From: Acidobacteriota bacterium
GTDB lineage: Bacteria > Acidobacteriota > Thermoanaerobaculia > Multivoradales > JAGPDF01
NCBI GenBank assembly: GCA_014584695.1
Contig: JACTMI010000008.1
Span: 15,333 to 79,332, forward strand
Length of the DNA: 64,000 nucleotides
Direction of reading: 5' to 3'
How positions within the stretch are numbered: position 1 is the stretch's first letter; each line of letters starts with the position of its first letter. A program made the translations under genes and the position numbers. The notes beneath the pieces are model-generated. The model did not search any database. It was not told the DNA's origin and worked only from the letters and a program-made list of their open reading frames with translations. Below are positions 13,103 to 24,066 of the stretch, in pieces.

Positions 13103-13405
13103 TCAAGTGAAGATGGCCTCGTAGCGCATGGAACCGTCCCGCGGCCCGAGCGGTACCAGGAAGATCTCGAGTCGGCCGACACCCTCCGCTTCGAGAGGGA
13201 GGATCTGCTGCGGGTACCAGGGACTCATCGGGCCGTGGAAGATCAGCCGGAAGGGCTCGCGCTTCGACTGCGGATCCGTGCCGCTCGCGAGGGGCTCCGC
13301 GGCGACGAGCGCGAGCTCGACATCAGCCGGCGCCGGCCTGTCGACCCGGAAGCGCAGGCCCAACCGCCCGGAGAAGTGCTCCCGCCTCAACTCAGCGATG
13401 TCCAT
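13103..13405 (-). CDS. Hypothetical protein (about 100 aa)
   Basis: Internal Met MDIAELRREHFSGRLGL... at 13405. It sits in the same-strand gene string; no recognisable motif. Confidence 0.4.
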   Translation of the reverse strand: MDIAELRREHFSGRLGLRFRVDRPAPADVELALVAAEPLASGTDPQSKREPFRLIFHGPMSPWYPQQILPLEAEGVGRLEIFLVPLGPRDGSMRYEAIFT

Positions 13406-14188: not shown

Positions 14189-14716
14189 CTAGGTCCGCGG
14201 CGGAAAGACACCCTGCAGCGCGATGCAGAAGCTCACGGTCAGGTAGGGCATCATGTTGTTGTGCGGCGCGTCGCCGCCCACCGGCGCGAGCGCCTGATCG
14301 GACATGGCCACCAGGCTCGCGTTGGCGGTGTTGAAGATGTTGTTGCCGCGGCCGAAGGGCCTCGCGACCAGGGCTCCGGCCGGCTGATTGGAGTTCGCCG
14401 CGTCGTTGGAGGCCCGCATGGTGTGGGCATGCGAAGGGATCTCCGACTCGAGCAACGTGACGGTCTCCGAGCCCCCGCTCTCCCCCAGGTCGTGCAGCGA
14501 GAGGCCCGGTCCCTGCCCCGGCTGCATCGGCGCGCGCCCCTGCAGGTCGGGCAACGCGAAGTTCGACTTGCCGTTGCCGCCGTAAGTGGTTCCGAGCAGA
14601 GAAAAGAGAGCCGTGTTCTGCGACAGTGGCAGCAGCTGCCCGTCGCAGAACGCCCAGCCCCTGGGCGCGAAGTTGAACGGAAAGATGCGGATCTCCGCGA
14701 CGAACGGGTCGGCCAT
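14189..14716 (-). CDS. Phage tail-collar domain protein (PF07484-like; 'microcystin-dependent protein' MdpB family), paralog 1
   Basis: 175 aa; MADPFVAEIRIFPFNFAPRGWAFCDGQLLPLSQNTALFSLLGTTYGGNGKSNFALPDLQGR ... EIPSHAH ... GGDAPHNNMMPYLTVSFCIALQGVFP. Strong AGGAG RBS. Confidence 0.85.
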   Translation of the reverse strand: MADPFVAEIRIFPFNFAPRGWAFCDGQLLPLSQNTALFSLLGTTYGGNGKSNFALPDLQGRAPMQPGQGPGLSLHDLGESGGSETVTLLESEIPSHAHTMRASNDAANSNQPAGALVARPFGRGNNIFNTANASLVAMSDQALAPVGGDAPHNNMMPYLTVSFCIALQGVFPPRT

Positions 14717-14724
14717 GTTCGCTC

Positions 14725-15231
14725 CTAGGGCGGCGAGGGGAAGATGCCGAACAGCGAAATGATGAAATTGACGCAGAGGTACGGCTGGAAGTTGGTGTGG
14801 GGTTGCGAGCCCCCGGTGGCCGCGATCGCCTGCGGGTTCATGTTGACCGAGCTGGTCGCGAGCGTGTTGTAGATGCTGCCGGCGAGCGAAGTGGCGAGCA
14901 CGTTGTTCTGCGGGCTGGTCGCCTGACCGGCGGCGCCGCTGGTCATCTTCGGATGCGAATGCGCTGGAACCTGATTGACCGTCAGCGTGATCTCTTCCGC
15001 GCCGCCGGTCTCGGCGAGGATGAAGCCGTTGCCTTGGTGGATCGGCAGGCGGCCCCTCAGGTCCGGAACGGCGAACGTGCTCTGGCCGTCCCCTCCGTAG
15101 GTCGTGCCGATCAGCTGGAACAGCGTCTCGTTCTCGGAGATCGGCAGCAGTTGGCCCTCACAGAGCATCCAGCCGGCGGGAGCGAAGTTCCCGCCGAACA
15201 TGCGAATCTCGCCGACATACGGTTGCGCCAT
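14725..15231 (-). CDS. Phage tail-collar domain protein, paralog 2
   Basis: 168 aa; MAQPYVGEIRMFGGNFAPAGWMLCEGQLLPISENETLFQLIGTTYGGDGQSTFAVPDLRGR ... QVPAHSH ... GGSQPHTNFQPYLCVNFIISLFGIFP. AAGGAG RBS; 8-10 bp gaps to its neighbours. Confidence 0.85.
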   Translation of the reverse strand: MAQPYVGEIRMFGGNFAPAGWMLCEGQLLPISENETLFQLIGTTYGGDGQSTFAVPDLRGRLPIHQGNGFILAETGGAEEITLTVNQVPAHSHPKMTSGAAGQATSPQNNVLATSLAGSIYNTLATSSVNMNPQAIAATGGSQPHTNFQPYLCVNFIISLFGIFPSPP

Positions 15232-15241
15232 GGCCGCTCCT

Positions 15242-15751
15242 TCAGGTCGGGCTCGGGAAGATGCCCTGGAGCGCGATCATGAAGTTGAGTGTCAGGAAGG
15301 GCTGCAAGTTGAGGTGGGCCTGCGAGCCTCCCGCGTTGAGAACCGCGCCAGAGTGGGCGGCAGCCAGGCTCGCCGGCGGACCGTAGATGCTACCGACCGC
15401 CGCCGAGGCGACCGCGAGAAAGGCGTTGGTCGGGTCGGTCGCGTTGGCGCTGGCGCCGACGCCGCTGGCGACGTGGGTGTGCAGCGGCAGCTCGGCGATC
15501 GAGAGCGTGTGCGCCTGCTCGCCAGCCCGCTCGCCGAGCGTGTGTCCCGACCCGGCGTGGATCGGAGTCCGCGCTCGCAGATCGGGCAGGGCGAAGTTGG
15601 TCTGGCCGTTGCCACCGTAGGTCGTGCCCAGCAGGGAGAAGAGCGCCTGGTTCTGGTTGATGGGCAGCAGCTGACCATTGCACTGCGCCCACCCCTGCGG
15701 CACGAAACCGAACGACGCGATCCGGATCTCGCTCAGAAACGGCTCTGCCAT
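15242..15751 (-). CDS. Phage tail-collar domain protein, paralog 3
   Basis: 169 aa; MAEPFLSEIRIASFGFVPQGWAQCNGQLLPINQNQALFSLLGTTYGGNGQTNFALPDLRAR ... ELPLHTH ... GGSQAHLNLQPFLTLNFMIALQGIFP. GGAGGAGGGGGA RBS. Confidence 0.85.
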   Translation of the reverse strand: MAEPFLSEIRIASFGFVPQGWAQCNGQLLPINQNQALFSLLGTTYGGNGQTNFALPDLRARTPIHAGSGHTLGERAGEQAHTLSIAELPLHTHVASGVGASANATDPTNAFLAVASAAVGSIYGPPASLAAAHSGAVLNAGGSQAHLNLQPFLTLNFMIALQGIFPSPT

Positions 15752-15790
15752 CTCGTTGTCCCCCTCCTCCGTCGAGTGTCGCCGACGCCG

Positions 15791-18700
15791 TCAGAACATC
15801 GGCCCGCTCGGTTGGAGGCAGGCACCCGGCACGACGTCGATCGTCGAACCGACCTCCACGTTCACGAACGGCGGACTGGTCGTCGGCGAGTTCGCGCCAC
15901 CGAGATTGCCGCGCGCTCCCAGCAGTGTCGCGCAGGCCGCCGAAGGACTTCCGACCGGGCAGGTGCCCGATCCGACCAGGTTGAAGTCGCCGGCGAACTC
16001 CTCGAGCGAGTAGCCGTCCGGGGCCCGGTTGTTCTGCAGGTCGAGGCACAGCGTTCCGCCGCCGCCGGTGGGCAGGATTCGAGACTCGAAGGTCTGGCCG
16101 GGATCGAAGCCGGCATCGTGCTCGGCGAAGAGGTCGTTGATGATCGTCAGATCGAGGACGGCGCCGTTCTGGAGGTCGGCGAGCGCGCGCAGGCCGGGTC
16201 CGCAGAAGCCGGCCGCGCCCGGACAGAGCTGACCGGCGCCGAGGTTGCAGCCGCCGCCGGCGGAGGACGGATCGGTGCTGCAGAACGCGCCCTTGATCCC
16301 GAGGTTGTTGCGGAACATGACCCGCGCGCTCACCGTGCTGTCGGCGCGCAAGAACCAGGGCGCGTTGCCCGGCGTGTCGAAGGTGTTGTCCTCGACCAGA
16401 ACATTCCAGGTGCCATTGGTCATCGCCAGAGTGAACTGGCCGACGCCGCCCGAAGCGTTGGCGATCTCGTCGAAGTAGTTGCCGTCGACGACGACGTTCC
16501 AGGTCATCGTGTCGGTCCCCAGGGAGCCGACCAGCACGCCGCCCTGCGGGAAGTCGAAGTCGCCACCGATGCCGCTCGAGTGGTCGTTGACGGTGAACTC
16601 GTTCTGTCCGATCACCACGTCGACGTTGCCGGTCGCCCCGGCGTCGCCGACCACCCGGATCGAGCCGATGGCGCAGTTGAGGAAGTCGTTGTCGAGCGCG
16701 TTGTTGACGCGGTCGCCGATGGTCACCGAGGCATTGCCGGCGCCCTGCACCGTGACGTCGATGCAGTGGCCGCCGACCGAGGAGCGCGGCCCGGAGGTGA
16801 ACTCCTTGTAGGCATGGTGGAAGTTGTTGTTGGTCGCGGTCATGGTCAAGGTGCCGCCGGTGACGAAGAAGTCGATCAGCTCGCCGCCGCGCTGGAGCGT
16901 GCTGTTGGTGACCGAGACCGGACCGCGGATGCCGAGGATGCGAACCATCCCCTCGTTGTTGGAGTCACCGACGCCCGCGACGTGGAAGCGGTTGCTGTCC
17001 TCGAACGTCACGTTGTTGAGCGTCAGGCCGTTCCACACCGTGGCCGCGCCGCCCGCCAGCGTGGCGCCGTGGATCGCGTTGTCGCTGATCCGGCGGATGA
17101 TGACACCGTCGAGCGTCAAGCCGCCGTCGACGTCCTGACCGTGGATGGCATCGTGCCCGCTGATCGTGTCGATGCCCCCGCCCATGTTGCCGAGATCCTC
17201 GAAGATCATGTGGCGCAGGGTCACCGGGCCGTCGGTGTTGTTCATCGTCATGCCGTCGGCGGTCTTGTTGTCGATCGTGCCGCCGGTGCCCGCGGAGCCG
17301 GTGCCGGTGACGTGGAACGGTCCGCTCCCGGTGTTGGCGAGGATGATCGCGGTGTTGCCGCTGGCGCCGGCCGAGTTGATCGAACGGAGCGTGACGCCGT
17401 CCGGCGTGATCGTCGTGTTGCTGAGGTTCAACACCGTCGCCGTGGTGGTGCTCAGGGCGTTGACCAGCGGCCCGGTGCTCCCCGGGTTGCACGGGCTCTC
17501 GTCGCAGATCGAGAGCCGGCCGCCGCTGGTGGCGGTGAACGCCGGGTTGGCACCCGTCGAGGCGGACAGGCCCCCGGCGAAGACGGTCGTGGACGCGGCG
17601 CCGTTGGAGTTGAGCAGGATGCCGCTGCCGGTCTCGGTGATCGCTCCGGTGAACGACACCGTGTCGCTGGTGCGCGAACTGATCGCCACCGCGCGGCCGT
17701 TGTTGTTGGTGACCGGGATTCCGAGCGTCACGTGCCCGCTGCCACCGGTGACGACGACCGCATCGCCCGAGGCCCCGGCCGGATCGCTGATCGCCCCGGA
17801 GTTGACCGAGAGCGCCGTGGCGCCGACGCCGCCGAAGGCGTTGACCAGCGACAGGCCGGTGGTGGTCGAGTTGGTGCTCTCCAGGAAACCGAGCGGCAGC
17901 GTCACCGAGGCGTTGTTGACGCTCACCGCCGGACCGCCGTTCGAATCGATCGTCGCGACGCCGGCCGGCACCACCAGGCGGAAGCCGGTACCGGCGCCGG
18001 CGTTGAGCGCACCGGTCGAAGTGACGCCGAGGCCGGTGCCGGCGTCGTTGAAGATGTCGAGATCGGTGAAGCCGAGGTCGCCGAGGACGTTGGTGAGCAG
18101 GAGGCCGTGGGTGCCGACGCCGTTGCCCGACTGACCGATCAGGGTCACCCCGCCCGCGACCTGCTGGATCGGCAGGCCGGGGACGGCGTCGAAGGTCGCG
18201 CCCGCGACCTCGATGCCCGAGCCGCCGGTGTTCCCGTGGATCACGTTGTCGTCGAAGCGGGTGATCGTGAGCGGGCCGCCGGTTCGCGTCACGTCGATGC
18301 CGCGGCTGCCGGCGGTCACCGTGTTGTCGTGAATCGCCAGAGTGAGCGCGCCGGTGCCGCCATGGTTGACGTCGACTCCCTCCTCGCCCGAGCCCCGCAC
18401 GACGTTCTCACCGATGGTCAGCGATCCCGAGCCAGCGAACGCCGGGTTGGTGGTCAGGTCGATCCCGTTCGCGGCCACGCTCGACAGGCTCAGCCCGACG
18501 ATCTCGGTCGGAATCACGTCCGTCGCCGACACCGCACTGTTGCCGGCGCCACTGCGATCGACGAGCGGGCGGCTCCCCGGTGTACCGGAATGGAGCACCG
18601 TCGGCGAGCCGTTGCCGTTGAGGCCGACCGGAATCGACAGCCCGGCGTGCTCGCCGACCAGGCGCTGGCCGCTCTTGAGCGCGATGCCGGCGTCCTGGCC

Positions 18701-21139
18701 GGTCGAGGTGCCGTCGCCGAAGAAGACGAAGATCCAGTCGTTCGCCGCCGACGCCGTCTGCGCCTCGACCAGCGTGTCGAACGGGTCGAGCGAGCGGCCG
18801 AGGCCGCCGGCCGGGGCGTTGTTGCGGACGTACCAGACCCGTTCGAAGAAGTCGATCGTCACCGTGCCCGTCACGGTCGCGAGACCGTCCGAAACGTCGT
18901 AAGTGAAGCTGTCGGGCGACGTGCGGCCGGGCGGCGACGTGTAGCTGAAGCTGCCGTCGGCGGCGACGATCACGACCGCGCCCGCCGTCGCCGCGGCGAG
19001 CGACGCCGTCAACGCCGCGGGTCCGTCCGGATCGGTGTCGTTGGCGAGCAGGTTGCCGGCGGCGTAGACATAGGGGCCGTCGCCGTCGGGGCCGGGATCG
19101 ACGAGCGCGACCCGCAACCGGGTGTTCGAAATGGTCTGGAACGACTCGCCCGTGACCACCGGCGGGTCGTTGACCGGCGTGACCGTGATCGTCGAGGTCA
19201 CCGGCAGGGAGCCGTCGATCCCATCGCTCGCGAGCCAAGTCACCGTCCGGTCGAGCGCCGATGGGGCATCGGAGTTGTTGAAGTAGGTCACGCCGCGCAG
19301 CGCCGTCTGATAGGCCGCGAGCGTGGCGTTGCCGGTCAGCGTCAGCGTGCCGGTCGCCGGCACGAAAGTCGGCGAGAGTCCCGCGCAGGGGGCACCGCAG
19401 GCCAGGATGTCCTGGCCGTTCTGGTAGTTGCCGCTGATCTGGGCGCTCGCCGAAACGAGTTGCGCGTGGTCGGCGTCGGCGACGGTGATCGTGGTGTCGA
19501 TCGGCGTCGCGGGGTCGTTCTCCGTGTAGGCGAGCGTGGCCCCGGCGGAGAGCACCGGCCGATCGTTGACCGAGACCACCTGCACGGTCGCCGTCGCCGG
19601 CGCGCTGGTCTCGACGCCGTCGCTCGCCCGGAAGGCCACCGTGCGATCGAGGGTCGACGGGTCTTCCGAGGTGTTGTGGTAGCGGACGGCCCGCAGCGCG
19701 GTCTGGTAGTTGGCGACCGTTGAGGTGCCGGAGAGCGTCAACGTGCCGGTGGCGGGCACCCAATTGCCGGTGATGCCGAGCTGGTCGACGAAAGAGAGTA
19801 CGTCCTCGCCGTTCACGTAGTTGGCGGTGATCTGTGCCGTCGCGCCGACGAGCAGCAAGCTGTCGCCGTCGGTGACGGTGAGCGCCGGGTCGATCGCGGT
19901 CGCCGGATCGTTCTCTGTGTAGACGAGGGTACCGCCGGCGATCACCACCGGGGGCAAACGGTCGATGATGACATAAGCGAACGCGGATTGCGGCCCGATC
20001 GGATTGCCCAGGGCGTCGAGCGTCGGATCGCCCGCCGTCGGCACGAGCGTGTAGGAAAAAGCGTCGGTGCCCTGGAATCCCGCGGGCGGCGTGTAGACGA
20101 AATGTCCGTCGGCGCCGACGTCGACGGTTCCGCCCTGCGCGGTCGCGGATCCGCTCACGGCGATGGCCGCCAACGGATTTCCGTCGGCGTCCGAGTCGTT
20201 GGCGAGGAGCGACGCCACCAGGGCGGCGGAGCTGTCGAGAGGCGTCGAGGTCACCGTTCGATACTGGTCGCGGCGCGCGAGCGGCGTCGTCCGCACCGAG
20301 GCCGGGACCAACTGGAGGTTCGGCTCGAGCAGGTCGGCGAGCTCGACGTCCGTCGCCGCGCCGGCGCTGTTGGCGATCGTCACCCGATAGCGGAACGTGT
20401 CTCCGGGCTCGACGCCGGCGGGTGGGAGAGGTCCACCGCCCGCGGCGAGGTCGACCTTGGCGGCCGCGATCGCCGGGGAACCGGTGGCGATCCGGTCGAG
20501 GACCAGCCCCTGCTCCGTGCCGGCGATGCGCAGCTCGATCGCGCCGACGTCGGTCAGGTCGGCCGGGCCGAGAGCGCCGGGCACCGTGACCAGCTCCGCG
20601 AACGAGATGAACAGCGAGGTCGGCGCGCCGATCGCGGGCAACACGCGGCCGGCCCGCGAAGCGTGATCGGCGTCCTGGTGAACGACCACGACCATGTGCG
20701 CTCCCGCGGTGGCTGAAGCGATCGAGAGACGGATCCCGCCGGCGGTGCCGCCATCGGTCAGGTCGACGCCGCCGAGACCGGTCGGATCGAGGGCCAACGG
20801 GTCGTTATCGCCGTCCCAGACGAGGTCGATCTCGCCCCGGGTATCGGGCGTCGTGTCGGTCACCGCGAAGCTCAGCACGCCGCCCGCCACGCCCGCCGAC
20901 ACGGGCCCCACGCCCGCGAGTCTCCGCACCACCAAGTCCCGGCTCGTGCCGAGAATGTCCGCGCCGGCGGTGACGACTGTCGACGCGCCGCCGGGGGGAT
21001 CGGTGAGCGTCGCCTGGTTGGTCGTGAGCTCGTCGATGACGACCTCGGTCCACGCCGGAGTCGCCCATCCGAGCACGGCGAGGCCGACGAGAACGCGCCA
21101 ACCGGTCTTCACCCGGGTGGCGTGAGCGCGGCCGCTCAT
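15791..21139 (-). CDS. Giant secreted exoprotein (1782 aa): signal peptide, several cadherin-like/Ig-like repeats, C-terminal right-handed parallel beta-helix region
   Basis: Signal peptide WRVLVGLAVLGWATPAWTEV. Four repeats of ~100 aa with (L/V)xYTENDPAT..., VSVNDRPV and VTPVNDPPV motifs (cadherin-like). Then many NxxI/VxG/DNxV beta-helix rungs (DNTVTAGSRGIDVT, DNVIHGNTGGSGIEV, NNNFHHAY). The start ATG is coupled (ATGA) to the upstream gene's stop. Confidence 0.8.
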   Translation of the reverse strand: MSGRAHATRVKTGWRVLVGLAVLGWATPAWTEVVIDELTTNQATLTDPPGGASTVVTAGADILGTSRDLVVRRLAGVGPVSAGVAGGVLSFAVTDTTPDTRGEIDLVWDGDNDPLALDPTGLGGVDLTDGGTAGGIRLSIASATAGAHMVVVVHQDADHASRAGRVLPAIGAPTSLFISFAELVTVPGALGPADLTDVGAIELRIAGTEQGLVLDRIATGSPAIAAAKVDLAAGGGPLPPAGVEPGDTFRYRVTIANSAGAATDVELADLLEPNLQLVPASVRTTPLARRDQYRTVTSTPLDSSAALVASLLANDSDADGNPLAAIAVSGSATAQGGTVDVGADGHFVYTPPAGFQGTDAFSYTLVPTAGDPTLDALGNPIGPQSAFAYVIIDRLPPVVIAGGTLVYTENDPATAIDPALTVTDGDSLLLVGATAQITANYVNGEDVLSFVDQLGITGNWVPATGTLTLSGTSTVANYQTALRAVRYHNTSEDPSTLDRTVAFRASDGVETSAPATATVQVVSVNDRPVLSAGATLAYTENDPATPIDTTITVADADHAQLVSASAQISGNYQNGQDILACGAPCAGLSPTFVPATGTLTLTGNATLAAYQTALRGVTYFNNSDAPSALDRTVTWLASDGIDGSLPVTSTITVTPVNDPPVVTGESFQTISNTRLRVALVDPGPDGDGPYVYAAGNLLANDTDPDGPAALTASLAAATAGAVVIVAADGSFSYTSPPGRTSPDSFTYDVSDGLATVTGTVTIDFFERVWYVRNNAPAGGLGRSLDPFDTLVEAQTASAANDWIFVFFGDGTSTGQDAGIALKSGQRLVGEHAGLSIPVGLNGNGSPTVLHSGTPGSRPLVDRSGAGNSAVSATDVIPTEIVGLSLSSVAANGIDLTTNPAFAGSGSLTIGENVVRGSGEEGVDVNHGGTGALTLAIHDNTVTAGSRGIDVTRTGGPLTITRFDDNVIHGNTGGSGIEVAGATFDAVPGLPIQQVAGGVTLIGQSGNGVGTHGLLLTNVLGDLGFTDLDIFNDAGTGLGVTSTGALNAGAGTGFRLVVPAGVATIDSNGGPAVSVNNASVTLPLGFLESTNSTTTGLSLVNAFGGVGATALSVNSGAISDPAGASGDAVVVTGGSGHVTLGIPVTNNNGRAVAISSRTSDTVSFTGAITETGSGILLNSNGAASTTVFAGGLSASTGANPAFTATSGGRLSICDESPCNPGSTGPLVNALSTTTATVLNLSNTTITPDGVTLRSINSAGASGNTAIILANTGSGPFHVTGTGSAGTGGTIDNKTADGMTMNNTDGPVTLRHMIFEDLGNMGGGIDTISGHDAIHGQDVDGGLTLDGVIIRRISDNAIHGATLAGGAATVWNGLTLNNVTFEDSNRFHVAGVGDSNNEGMVRILGIRGPVSVTNSTLQRGGELIDFFVTGGTLTMTATNNNFHHAYKEFTSGPRSSVGGHCIDVTVQGAGNASVTIGDRVNNALDNDFLNCAIGSIRVVGDAGATGNVDVVIGQNEFTVNDHSSGIGGDFDFPQGGVLVGSLGTDTMTWNVVVDGNYFDEIANASGGVGQFTLAMTNGTWNVLVEDNTFDTPGNAPWFLRADSTVSARVMFRNNLGIKGAFCSTDPSSAGGGCNLGAGQLCPGAAGFCGPGLRALADLQNGAVLDLTIINDLFAEHDAGFDPGQTFESRILPTGGGGTLCLDLQNNRAPDGYSLEEFAGDFNLVGSGTCPVGSPSAACATLLGARGNLGGANSPTTSPPFVNVEVGSTIDVVPGACLQPSGPMF

Positions 21140-21948
21140 CGACCGGCCTCCCCCTCGCCCGGGCGACGGCGCAGCCTACGCGCGGCGAGCGCGGCGAGCG
21201 CGAACGCGAGCGCTGCGGCACCGAGCGGCCCGAGCGCTGGAATCGCCTGGAGCGGCGGCGCGCCGCCGGCGGCCCGGATCATCCAGTTGCCGGGCTGGAA
21301 GGAATCGATCAGGCCGAAGTACTGGCCGGGAGCTGGCGTCAGCTGCGGCGGATCTGGCGGATCGCCCGCCCAGATCGCGAGCCACGAGCGGCCCTGCGAC
21401 AGCCCGGTGTCGATCGCCGCCGGGAAGGTCGGGGGAGTCACGCCGCTGGTGATGAAGCGCGGCACCACGCCGACCAGCAGGTCGCTACCGGCCGGTACGA
21501 AGACCGGCGGATCGATCGGATAGACCGACGGTGTCACGCCGTCGAGCGCCTGAATGGCCGCGCCGAGAGTACGCGCGAGAGCCGCGCCGTTGGCCGGGTT
21601 GCCATCCGCGTCGACGTAGATGGCGATCTGGACCGCGTCGCCGACGGCCATCTGAGGATCGGGCAGAAAGAGCACCTCGACCGCGTCGAGGTCGAAGTTG
21701 CCGGGGGGAGAGAATCGGTTGAACCAGAGGAACTGCCGTGCGTTCTGGACCGCGACACCGACCGCGCCTTCGGCGCTGCCGTCGTCGAGCGACAGCACGG
21801 TCGAGCCCACGCCGAGCGTGGTCGGCGCCTCCGCCGAGCGTGCCGCGGGCCGGAAGGTCACGTCGGCACCCGCGGCGGGAAGTGCCCCCAGCGCCAGCAG
21901 CGCGCCGAACAGTACCGCCACCCCAGTCGATCCCGAGTCCTTCTTCAT
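21136..21948 (-). CDS. Secreted protein with PEP-CTERM-like C-terminal sorting signal (270 aa)
   Basis: MKKDSGSTGVAVLFGALLALGALPAAGA signal peptide. The C-terminus ...IPALGPLGAAALAFALAALAARRLRRR is a Pro-rich motif plus a TM helix plus an Arg cluster, typical of exosortase substrates. Confidence 0.6.
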   Translation of the reverse strand: MKKDSGSTGVAVLFGALLALGALPAAGADVTFRPAARSAEAPTTLGVGSTVLSLDDGSAEGAVGVAVQNARQFLWFNRFSPPGNFDLDAVEVLFLPDPQMAVGDAVQIAIYVDADGNPANGAALARTLGAAIQALDGVTPSVYPIDPPVFVPAGSDLLVGVVPRFITSGVTPPTFPAAIDTGLSQGRSWLAIWAGDPPDPPQLTPAPGQYFGLIDSFQPGNWMIRAAGGAPPLQAIPALGPLGAAALAFALAALAARRLRRRPGEGEAGR

Positions 21949-22004
21949 CGCGCGGCGCTCCCCGTCTCCCTGCCGGCCGCCGAGACTCCCAGCCGAACCC
22001 CCGC

Positions 22005-24066
22005 TCACGGCACGCACCCCGAGCAACCACCGTTCCACCGCGAGGTGTCCCCCGTCTCGAACCCGTCGGCGAAGATCGCCCCGCCGGCCGAAAGCCGCGC
22101 GCCGTCGATGCCACCGTCGAAGCTCTGCCCCGACGCGGTGACGAAGGCAAAGCGGCAGGCGGCCGACTGCGATCCGGCCGGCGGCGTGACGGCCCGGCTC
22201 AAGCTCGACCAGAGTCCACCGGTGTCGAACAGAACCAGCGTATCGGCGACCGTCCCGAGCAAGCCCGCGCAGGCGGCGGACGAATAGAACCGACAGCGGC
22301 GCTCGAATCCGATCGGCACTCCCGGCGCGGCGGCGAGGCGGACACGGACGTCCAGCTCGTAAGCCGTGCCGGCAACAACCTCCACGCACTGGCCGAGCCC
22401 GAACAGCGTGTCGACGCCCGGCGCCAAGTTGGTGAGGAACACCGAGCCCGAGTCGTCGGCGTCGTCGGCATCCGCGCTGCTCCAAGTGACCTCCGCCGGC
22501 ACCGCCGCTTCGGGCGTCCAGCCGCCCAGGTCGCAATCGAAGTGACCGTTGGCGAAGTGGTTGTCGGGGTCGCTCCGGAAAGCACGCCGGAAGTCGCCGC
22601 CGGCGTTCGCGTCGCCGTCGCCGTCGAGCGCGTTGCCGGCGAGATCGGTCAGCTCGTCGCACAGGAAGAGCCGGTGCTGGCCTGCGGCGAGCGGCGCGGC
22701 GAGGGAGAGCGTCGCGGTGTCGGTCCCCGTGTCGTAGGTGACACTGGAGATCGACACGGCGACATCGTCCCCCGCGGCGCCGCCGCAGCCGGTGGTGGCG
22801 AAGTCGAAGTCGGGGCCGGCGGCGACGACGAGGTAGTTGGCAGGATTCGTCACGTCCGCGGCGCCCGAATCGCCCGGCGGGTCGGCCATGGGTTCGCTGA
22901 AGACGGCCCGGAAGCCGCCGATCCACGAGGTGACCGTCTCGCACTCGGTGAGCTCGCCGCCCGGGCTCGCGGGCACGGTGTCCACCTCGATCACGGTCGG
23001 CGGTGTACTGTCGAGCGTCACCGTCAAGCAGTCGCTGTTGTCGCCCGGATTCGGATCGGCACCATTGGCGCCGTCGTCGGCGACCGATGCGCAGTTGTCG
23101 ACCTCGGGCACGCCGGGCGGCAGCGGGTCGTCGAGATCGACGGCGAAAACCGCGGCGCCGCCGGCCCCACCCCCAGCGACTCCACCGACCGCGAGCGTGC
23201 AGGTCGAGCCGGCGCTGTTGTCGGGCAGGCAGGCCCAACCGGCCGTCGACGCTCCCGGGTTGAAAGTCGTGTTCGCGGGTACCGTCTCGGTGATCGCGAC
23301 GCCGGTCGCGCCCTGATTGCCGACGTTCGAGTAGTCGAGGTCGAAGGGGATCGTGTCGCCGGGGAAGGGCGTCGGACCGGCGTATCCCTTGGCGAGGGTC
23401 AGATCCGGTTGGGCGACGAGCGGCGTCGTGTCGGTCGAGCTGTTGTTGCCCGGAGTCGGGTCGGCGCCGTTCGTCCCGTCATCGGCGATCGTCGCGGTGT
23501 TCGAGATCTGAGCGACACCGGATTGTCCACCGTGACGGCGAACGTCGCCGCGCCGCCGGCTCCGCCACCCGCGAGCGCGCCGATCGCGAGCGAGCAGGCC
23601 GAGCCGGCGTTGCCGTTCGGCACGCAAACCCAGCCGGCGGTCGATGCGCCGGCGTTGAAGGTCGTGTTCGCCGGCACCGTCTCGCCGAGCACCACGCCGG
23701 TCGCGCCCTGGTTGCCGACGTTGGAGTAGGTCAAGGTGTAAGCGACCGTGGCCCCGGGCACCGTCGAGATGCCGCCGTCGCTCTTGACGATGGTCAGGTC
23801 CGGTTGGGCCCGCCGAGCGCCGGGTCGTCAGTCGGCACATCGGGGTCGTAGTTGGAACCGCTGACGTCCCCCTGGTTGCAGACCTGCGTGGCGCCGGCGA
23901 GGACCGGGTTGGCGACCGTGACCAGCCACTCGATGGTAACGGCGGCGCCGTCCTCGAGCTCGCCCAGGGGAACCGTGATCAACTGCGCCCGGCTCGCCGT
24001 GGCCGCGAGGCCCACCCAGACGAGGGCCCAGCGGAGAATTTGACGACGAATCCCGAACCGGCTCAT
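22005..24066 (-). pseudogene. DUF11 ('conserved repeat domain') surface protein with signal peptide, interrupted by two apparent frameshifts (pseudogene or sequencing/assembly error)
   Basis: Three consecutive ORFs in different frames on the same strand (24066-23794, 23761-23399, 23840-22005) together encode one protein: signal MSRFGIRRQILRWALVWVGLAATASRAQ, then three DUF11 repeats (YSNVGNQGATGV..ETVPANTTFN.GASTAGW.C), then a jelly-roll-like C-terminal domain. Frame breaks lie near 23800 and 23510. Confidence 0.6.

Follow-up and report, generated by a model that had tools for sequence, protein, structure and literature searches.

In gp12 and gp37 of phage T4, and in the Pfam description of the domain, the collar consists of the N-terminal ~60 residues and a strand located ~100 residues downstream. 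The receptor-binding domain of fibers of the gp12/gp37 type is inserted between these two collar halves, and in this family an HxH motif coordinates a metal ion located on the trimer axis. Collar-domain proteins have also been annotated outside phages for decades, as 'microcystin-dependent protein' or as RhiB, but to our knowledge without a mechanism. In the virophage DSLV2, three consecutive PF07484 proteins co-purify in a 1:1:1 ratio, form 16-nm fibers, show position-specific orthology and bind Synechococcus (PMC12724248). Here, we analyzed three adjacent collar genes, referred to as A, B and C, in a 64,000-nt stretch of DNA from an Acidobacteriota bacterium (contig JACTMI010000008.1 of assembly GCA_014584695.1, positions 15,333 to 79,332; the whole stretch is referred to as the window). 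The three genes are all on the minus strand, in the order A-B-C. Our results indicate that A, B and C are probably subunits of one obligate 1:1:1 heterotrimer with the gp12/gp37 tip fold and a composite variable tip, encoded in a cellular, surface-related gene cluster. While the fold and the heterotrimer principle were already known, a cellular, multi-phylum and ultra-conserved ordered trio with GNAT and DUF6916 partners had not been described before, and a literature search found no publication describing the bacterial trio as such.

All three proteins match the Pfam Collar domain (PF07484) over residues 7-63, with 93.9-102 bits against a cut-off of 24, and also match PHROG tail and tail-fiber families. 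Profile matches in the PDB include a phage long tail fiber (8kec, 8e-9), T4 gp12 (1ocy/1pdi, 1e-4) and, over nearly the whole length, a trimeric tail fiber protein (9nxk, 1.4e-3). The motifs that align to the solved fibers are the collar, followed by '..TL....LPxHxH', a non-conserved stretch and a C-terminal 'Q/N-P-Y/F-L...F-I-I'; the C-terminal block of the trio proteins, GGxQxHxNxQP(Y/F)L..NF.I, aligns to the C-termini of 8kec and 9nxk, a correspondence made at the level of sequence, with the structural model of B being poor. The trio proteins resemble gp12 (PDB 1OCY/1PDI) and the gp37 tip in the HxH metal-site motif and the sequence-profile matches, as well as in a predicted collar that would combine the N-terminal ~60 aa with a C-terminal strand far downstream, the binding domain being placed between the two. 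Because conserved ends and a variable middle represent the known architecture of the gp12/gp37 family, this layout is not a peculiarity of the locus studied here. Unlike gp12 and gp37, the trio proteins start directly at the collar, without a fiber shaft, are only 168-175 aa long, and are encoded by three fixed paralogs outside of a virus rather than by one self-trimerizing gene. Minor tail proteins of Microbacterium and Arthrobacter phages show ~40% identity to the trio proteins over 90-96% of the length, including the center and the C-terminal strand, but these are virion parts and presumed homotrimers encoded by one or two genes per genome.

The virophage DSLV2 and the Aquatic Virophage 1 lineage, reported in 2025, carry, like the window, three consecutive and co-oriented PF07484 genes (encoding ~200 aa in the virophage). 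Going by the published description, the orthology of their products is also position-specific, and the collar is conserved while the binding region is less so, as in the window trio (PMC12724248). However, the virophage genes adjoin capsid genes in a viral genome and their products bind the lipopolysaccharide of Synechococcus, whereas the trio studied here is located on the chromosomes of bacteria assigned to about eight phyla, has giant surface proteins, a GNAT and DUF6916 as linked partners, and shows a far more conserved framework (90-93% across phyla). The same Collar domain is found in a cellular, non-phage setting in COG4675, the 'microcystin-dependent protein' MdpB, which includes RhiB of the Rhizobium rhiABC operon and which is also the name given to the B orthologs in the Joint Genome Institute (JGI) annotation. 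RhiB has been cited as a Collar-domain protein, with a single such gene in rhiABCD and with RhiA and RhiC having no Pfam-A domain (PMC13133039), and COG4675 proteins are contained in soil metaproteomes (PMC5579227). The MdpB name carries no mechanism and, unlike in the window, an ordered trio with partner genes is absent from the papers found. Flagellins and type IV pilins provide an analogy of pattern only, as their conserved termini build the assembly while a hypervariable middle is exposed on the surface, but their fold is unrelated, they form homopolymers rather than a heterotrimer, and no homology is claimed.

A scan of genomes through B, with one genome per species, yielded 79 loci, mostly in metagenome-assembled genomes (MAGs). 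These loci were assigned to Acidobacteriota, Pseudomonadota, Verrucomicrobiota, Chloroflexota, Bacteroidota, Planctomycetota and Actinomycetota, with one further MAG labeled Bacillota (i.e., to about eight phyla), and isolates among the carriers include Mesorhizobium, Emticicia, Dyadobacter and Lacihabitans. B has >8000 database homologs, and the best 120 of these are 75-85% identical to it over the full length, with many named 'microcystin-dependent protein'. The order A-B-C and the strand were found to be identical in all 79 loci, where each protein shares 62-81% identity with the window protein at the same position, as compared to 48-50% between paralogs. The sole copy-number change is a second complete trio in one locus, L013. 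Among the relatives in IMG/VR, internal runs of short stand-alone collar genes consist of 1 (14 cases), 3 (9 cases) or 6 genes, and runs of 2 were seen only at contig ends. In an array of nine such genes (L085:1-5456), paralogy follows a period of three, with genes 1, 4 and 7, genes 2, 5 and 8, and genes 3, 6 and 9 being 53-67% alike versus 34-47% otherwise, and an array of six (L086:2255-5531) pairs genes 1 and 4, 2 and 5, and 3 and 6. These arrays therefore expand by whole trios.

The three genes are also tightly spaced. The intergenic gaps are 10 nt (A-B) and 8 nt (B-C) in the window, and the median gap is 11 nt for both junctions across 74 loci. Each gene has a GGAG-type ribosome-binding site (RBS) 5-9 nt ahead of its ATG, and the overlaps between stop codons and RBSs within the trio (Table 1) favor coupled translation. 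A promoter and terminator scan gave no signal beyond that expected from shuffled sequence.

A, B and C are 48-50% identical overall and can be aligned over their entire length; C carries a single 5-aa insertion (PGLSL; alignment columns 69-73, conserved in the C orthogroup only), and the other gaps are 1-2 aa long. Identity between the window paralogs is 59-70% in the N-terminal collar, 38-45% from the collar to HxH, 21-30% in the center (the ~46 aa past HxH) and 52-66% in the C-terminal block. A prior reading of the window from its letters (referred to as the sequence-only reading) had described three tail-collar paralogs between 14189 and 15751, each with a strong RBS of its own and with shared N- and C-terminal blocks, all of which was confirmed here. 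That reading had also described ~60 aa between these blocks that could not be aligned between the paralogs. The variable stretch is actually ~46-48 aa long and was aligned over its full length; in all orthologs the center measures 42-51 aa, and it contains recurring anchors, i.e., a Pro ~17 residues past HxH, an aromatic residue in I-Y/F and a closing GG. The HxH motif, reported there as a central, metal-site-like feature, is indeed invariant across the three window paralogs and 75 ortholog triplets and matches the metal-site motif of gp12/gp37-type fibers, which predicts that it ligates a metal ion, but it belongs to the conserved framework, with the center lying wholly past it.

Further analysis of the alignment of 75 complete trios, in which 122 columns were classed as framework and 47 as center, showed that 96 of the framework columns are conserved. 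Of these, 55 are common to A, B and C, and 41 are at least 85% conserved within each orthogroup yet differ among A, B and C. By comparison, a single center column is conserved, being common to all three proteins, and no center column distinguishes the orthogroups; variable columns make up 26/122 of the framework and 46/47 of the center. This unevenness is far beyond chance, and the identity of a chain as A, B or C is therefore written only in the framework. Median identity between orthologs drops from 0.90-0.93 in the framework to 0.33 in the center. Divergence of the center is the same between orthologs as between paralogs, without an orthogroup signature, and the centers of A, B and C within one locus show the same identity (0.243) as centers from different loci (0.243); no concerted evolution among the paralog centers of one locus was thus found. 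Across pairs of loci, the center identities of A, B and C are correlated (r = 0.52-0.57), and this joint divergence is as expected if the three centers form one surface.

The sequence-only reading had seen in the locus the pattern of receptor-binding tips that diversify for different ligands. By homology to gp12/gp37 the center is indeed the segment between the collar halves, but the existence of three alternative tips is not the best reading, given the ancient orthogroups in fixed order, the distinguishing residues confined to the framework and the jointly diverging centers. Three independent homotrimers (AAA, BBB and CCC), each with its own ligand and kept together only through co-regulation, would be consistent with the behavior of the fold in phages, which homotrimerizes and is encoded as a rule by a single gene per genome, and the lack of relatedness among the three centers of one locus makes three specificities conceivable. 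If the paralogs were defined by their ligands, however, orthogroup-specific residues would be expected in the center, where there are none, and not in the framework, where there are 41. In addition, no single member was lost or gained in the 79 loci, collar genes occur only in runs of 1, 3, 6 or 9, and the virophage trio forms a heterotrimer experimentally (PMC12724248). We therefore consider three separate homotrimeric tips unlikely.

An obligate A:B:C heterotrimer, the arrangement that we favor as the likely one, is supported by the trio rule in 79/79 loci with duplication of whole trios only, by the run lengths and period-three arrays of the distant relatives, by the restriction of chain-specific residues to the framework, where chains meet in this fold, by the tight gene coupling with an RBS overlapping the preceding stop codon, and by the precedent of virophage DSLV2 (PMC12724248). 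In such a heterotrimer, the N-terminal ~63 residues and the C-terminal strand of each chain would form the collar, and the next ~30 residues would end in HxH, with the six histidines of the three chains holding a metal ion on a pseudo-threefold axis. The ~46 variable residues of each chain would intertwine into one composite distal tip, which could bind a variable ligand, probably a surface glycan, while the near-invariant chain-specific framework residues would set which chain neighbors which. The overlapping stop/RBS junctions may favor equimolar synthesis of the subunits. The module as a whole would be cellular rather than viral, traveling with a GNAT protein and a beta-barrel protein of the DUF6916 type and, in most cases, with a giant surface protein containing Ig/cadherin repeats.

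Several observations weigh against this interpretation. As described above, phages usually have a single gene for this fold, which homotrimerizes there. Since the scan started from B, it would have missed genomes with A or C alone. In the distant trios L087, L088 and L090, the paralogs are 58-80% identical and might still self-assemble. The AlphaFold 2 (AF2) monomer model of B, built with 120 sequences, is poor (predicted local distance difference test score, pLDDT, of 49), and the fold and the three-dimensional position of the center are thus taken from sequence comparison; a poor monomer model might be expected for one chain of an intertwined trimer, yet it proves nothing. No signal peptide was found in A, B or C, as their N-terminus is already the first collar strand, and a surface role would therefore require some other export route. 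Finally, the ratio of nonsynonymous to synonymous substitution rates (dN/dS, or omega) in the center is essentially never above 1, and adaptive diversification is thus not demonstrated.

Estimation of dN/dS per region by the Nei-Gojobori method, for each gene and pooled over the three genes, showed that the center evolves several-fold faster than the framework and is under purifying selection in close relatives. Among orthologs, the proportion of nonsynonymous differences (pN) is 0.48-0.50 in the center, ~7-fold above the 0.06-0.09 found in the framework, where the proportion of synonymous differences (pS) is saturated at 0.73-0.75. The center is therefore specifically fast-evolving, as the sequence-only reading had claimed, and not a homologous region that has diverged evenly with the rest. 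The pooled omega is 0.04-0.05 in the framework at all distances; center values increase from 0.11-0.12 for close pairs to 0.4-0.5 for distant ones, and isolated center values above 1 occurred only where dN was saturated and the alignment unreliable. A dN/dS comparison by region had been named by the sequence-only reading as a check on its idea of cassette-like diversification, and these values lend that idea no support. In an earlier study from 2011, tail-collar paralogs of Ca. Solibacter were flagged for positive selection (PMC3174227). The GC content of the trio tracks that of the host flanks (r = 0.94), with GC at third codon positions (GC3) ranging from 0.30 to 0.98. Together with the saturated pS and the low pN of the framework, this host-like GC content indicates very strong purifying selection over a long residence rather than recent spread.

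The center could also be a weakly constrained, low-complexity spacer, the variability of which results from relaxed selection and is unrelated to ligand recognition. Its composition, in which A, S, N, T, P and G are abundant and charged or aromatic residues are scarce, fits such a spacer, as do pooled omega values (0.11-0.5) that never convincingly exceed 1. We nevertheless regard a mere spacer as quite improbable, since the length of the center is kept and its anchors recur, since purifying selection on it is clear in close relatives (omega ~0.11), and since homologous fibers bind their receptor with this segment (the gp12/gp37 family; PMC12724248). Moreover, one center type has been kept across phyla, with the centers of a Pyrinomonadaceae locus (L056) and a Pirellulaceae locus (L068) showing 0.76-0.89 identity. 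Such similarity of center types in different phyla also indicates that whole trios moved horizontally at some point.

With its conserved flanks and variable core, the trio resembles the targets of diversity-generating retroelements, silent-cassette recombination or invertible segments, and the sequence-only reading had called the diversification cassette-like. However, blastn (word size 7) and a repeat finder turned up neither silent copies nor a template repeat nor inverted repeats at the flanks in the 64-kb window, and no second copy of any center; what these searches picked up was only the paralogous blocks at the N-terminus (208 nt, 65-73%) and the C-terminus (88 nt), at identities of 61-75%. 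No reverse transcriptase was present among the genes called within 10 kb, the window as a whole not having been scanned for one. Centers are also stable in close genomes, being 96-100% identical in three Contendobacter loci (L037, L048 and L065). The nearest neighbor by framework agreed with the nearest neighbor by center in 9/75 trios and disagreed in 66/75, but this apparent mosaicism is confounded by the star-like framework tree, in which a few near-consensus sequences are nearest to everyone. Shared derived framework residues mostly rise with center identity (Jaccard index from 0.08 to 0.68), indicating mostly tree-like co-inheritance, although a few pairs of loci share a center type without sharing derived framework residues. 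Programmed hypervariation of the center is therefore extremely unlikely and, for the window, largely refuted.

Some trios and trio-like sequences showed irregular structures. The two trios of L013 (881-2444 and 8282-9845) are 7.4 kb apart and 100% identical over 1564 nt; they sit in a duplicated 2.1-kb segment with 93.6% identity overall, which could represent either a recent duplication or an artefact of MAG assembly. In a Saprospiraceae MAG, a 64-aa fragment resembling the collar N-terminus of B is located between A and B of a normal trio (L050:7731-7922) and is probably a decayed duplicate. One database match of 282 aa, with 20 member sequences (P0002), is a B-type protein that continues via 'SGGGS' into the next collar protein. 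This linker resembles a translated RBS spacer, and the protein could have arisen by natural read-through that fuses two subunits, or it could be an artefact of open reading frame (ORF) calling. In the IMG/VR trio L090 (132-2037), the pattern is the opposite of that in the window, as the paralog centers are 84-89% identical and the frameworks only 65-76%, which points to gene conversion or to one center having recently spread over all three genes.

In the window, the trio is part of a block of co-directional genes, called on the source contig, that comprises a DUF11 protein, a 270-aa protein, a 1782-aa protein, A, B, C, a 202-aa methyltransferase-like protein, a DUF6916 protein, a 278-aa protein and a GNAT protein. 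GNAT is the most constant neighbor of the trio; it was found in 64-69 of the 79 loci, at a median distance of <1 kb, mostly downstream and on the same strand, and it is likewise present after the distant trios L084 and L089. The DUF6916 protein is a neighbor of the trio in 54-60 of the 79 loci, and a large repeat protein related to the 1782-aa one is encoded within 8 kb in 69/79, nearly always in the same orientation. The assignment of the trio to a cellular module is based on these conserved neighbors, on the lack of phage genes among the called neighbors, and on Acaryochloris marina, in which an acetyltransferase gene is co-regulated with a hypothetical gene and with three 'phage tail collar' genes that adjoin one another (PMC11633204).

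Since all Pfam and PHROG matches are to tail proteins and some relatives are on contigs filed as viral in IMG/VR, the genes could alternatively be ordinary tail-fiber genes, left as a remnant or carried as cargo of a prophage, tailocin or contractile injection system. Such an origin is, however, very unlikely. No phage structural, lysis or integration genes were found among the called neighbors in the window, the conserved neighbors (GNAT, DUF6916 and surface-repeat proteins) recur in about eight phyla, the neighborhood across the 79 loci is of a non-viral kind, and GC content is fully ameliorated to each host. In addition, none of the 430 matching phage records reaches 60% identity, the typical match being a single minor-tail-protein gene at ~40%. 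Membership of an anti-phage defense system was considered as well and was rejected, as PADLOC defense models matched none of A, B, C, GNAT, DUF6916 and the 278-aa protein, with only a weak match (mad2) for the methyltransferase-like gene.

The curated NCBIfam family nearest to the GNAT protein is RimI, an N-terminal alanine acetyltransferase, with a match far below the cut-off, and in the alignment of 75 trios all A, B and C proteins start with Met-Ala-x-Pro. Taken together, these two features raise the cheap hypothesis, and nothing more, that GNAT may acetylate the N-termini of A, B and C.

The trio could also represent the core of a very widespread cellular recognition device, namely a heterotrimeric lectin derived from a phage fiber, in which the composite hypervariable tip would confer a binding specificity particular to each lineage; we consider this possible but doubtful. 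Under such a scenario, the device might serve self/non-self or partner recognition, attachment via the giant surface protein, or as a decoy for phage receptor-binding proteins, with the near-invariant framework docking onto a universally conserved partner and GNAT maturing it, such as through acetylation at the N-terminus, where the Met-Ala start is invariant. More generally, a large Collar subfamily that consists of an ordered, obligate-looking trio provides a concrete and testable model of a heterotrimeric binding module and would extend to cellular life the heterotrimer principle shown once in a virophage. If correct, the model would describe a natural three-chain scaffold with a replaceable tip, and it would open a new way of studying how bacteria of soil and water recognize surfaces or one another.

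Table 1. Coordinates of the trio genes, their sequence elements and neighboring genes in the 64,000-nt window
Feature	Position	Strand	Evidence
Collar paralog A, 169 aa, first of trio	15242..15751	-	ORF; Pfam Collar E = 5.7e-27; position-1 ortholog in 79/79 loci, 62-79% identity
Collar paralog B, 168 aa, second of trio	14725..15231	-	ORF; Pfam Collar E = 1.7e-29; position 2 in 79/79 loci
Collar paralog C, 175 aa, third of trio	14189..14716	-	ORF; Pfam Collar E = 3.8e-28; position 3 in 79/79 loci
RBS of A (GGAGGAGGGGG)	15760..15770	-	Read from sequence
RBS of B (AAGGAG), overlaps last base of A stop codon	15237..15242	-	Read from sequence
RBS of C (AGGAG), overlaps B stop codon	14722..14726	-	Read from sequence
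Variable center of A, residues 94-140	15332..15472	-	Within-orthogroup column identity 0.1-0.5
Variable center of B, residues 94-139	14815..14952	-	Median ortholog identity 0.33 vs 0.93 in framework
Variable center of C, residues 99-146	14279..14422	-	Column conservation and ortholog identity
HxH of A (H91-T-H93), putative metal ligands	15473..15481	-	Invariant, alignment columns 95 and 97; aligns to LPxHxH of fibers 8kec, 9qgo and 9nxk
HxH of B (H91-S-H93)	14953..14961	-	H91 and H93 invariant in 120 sequences
HxH of C (H96-A-H98)	14423..14431	-	Paralog and ortholog alignments
Giant 1782-aa protein, signal-peptide-like N-terminus, Big_9/cadherin-like repeats	15791..21139	-	Pfam and NCBIfam matches; ends 40 nt upstream of A, same strand
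GNAT acetyltransferase, 172 aa	11723..12241	-	Pfam Acetyltransf_1/3
DUF6916 protein, 100 aa, small beta-barrel	13103..13405	-	Pfam E = 4e-25; AF2 pLDDT 89.5
Methyltransferase-like gene directly after C, 202 aa	13538..14146	-	phrog_15480 E = 7e-23; weak aminopropyltransferase-type matches

Other genes of the block are less widely distributed. The methyltransferase-like gene is present in 5/79 loci and is thus lineage-specific and outside the conserved core; the 278-aa gene near the trio is likewise lineage-specific. Genes called nearby also include those for a DUF302 protein and a helix-turn-helix (HTH) protein. The 270-aa gene just upstream of the giant gene (21136-21948) encodes a protein with a weak IPTL-CTERM/XrtH-type sorting tail. 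The giant gene itself contains internal repeats spaced ~395 nt apart (19147-19363 and 19543-19759), and a similar repeat pair (23117-23414 and 23512-23809) is present in the ORFs upstream of it (21136-23840, minus strand).

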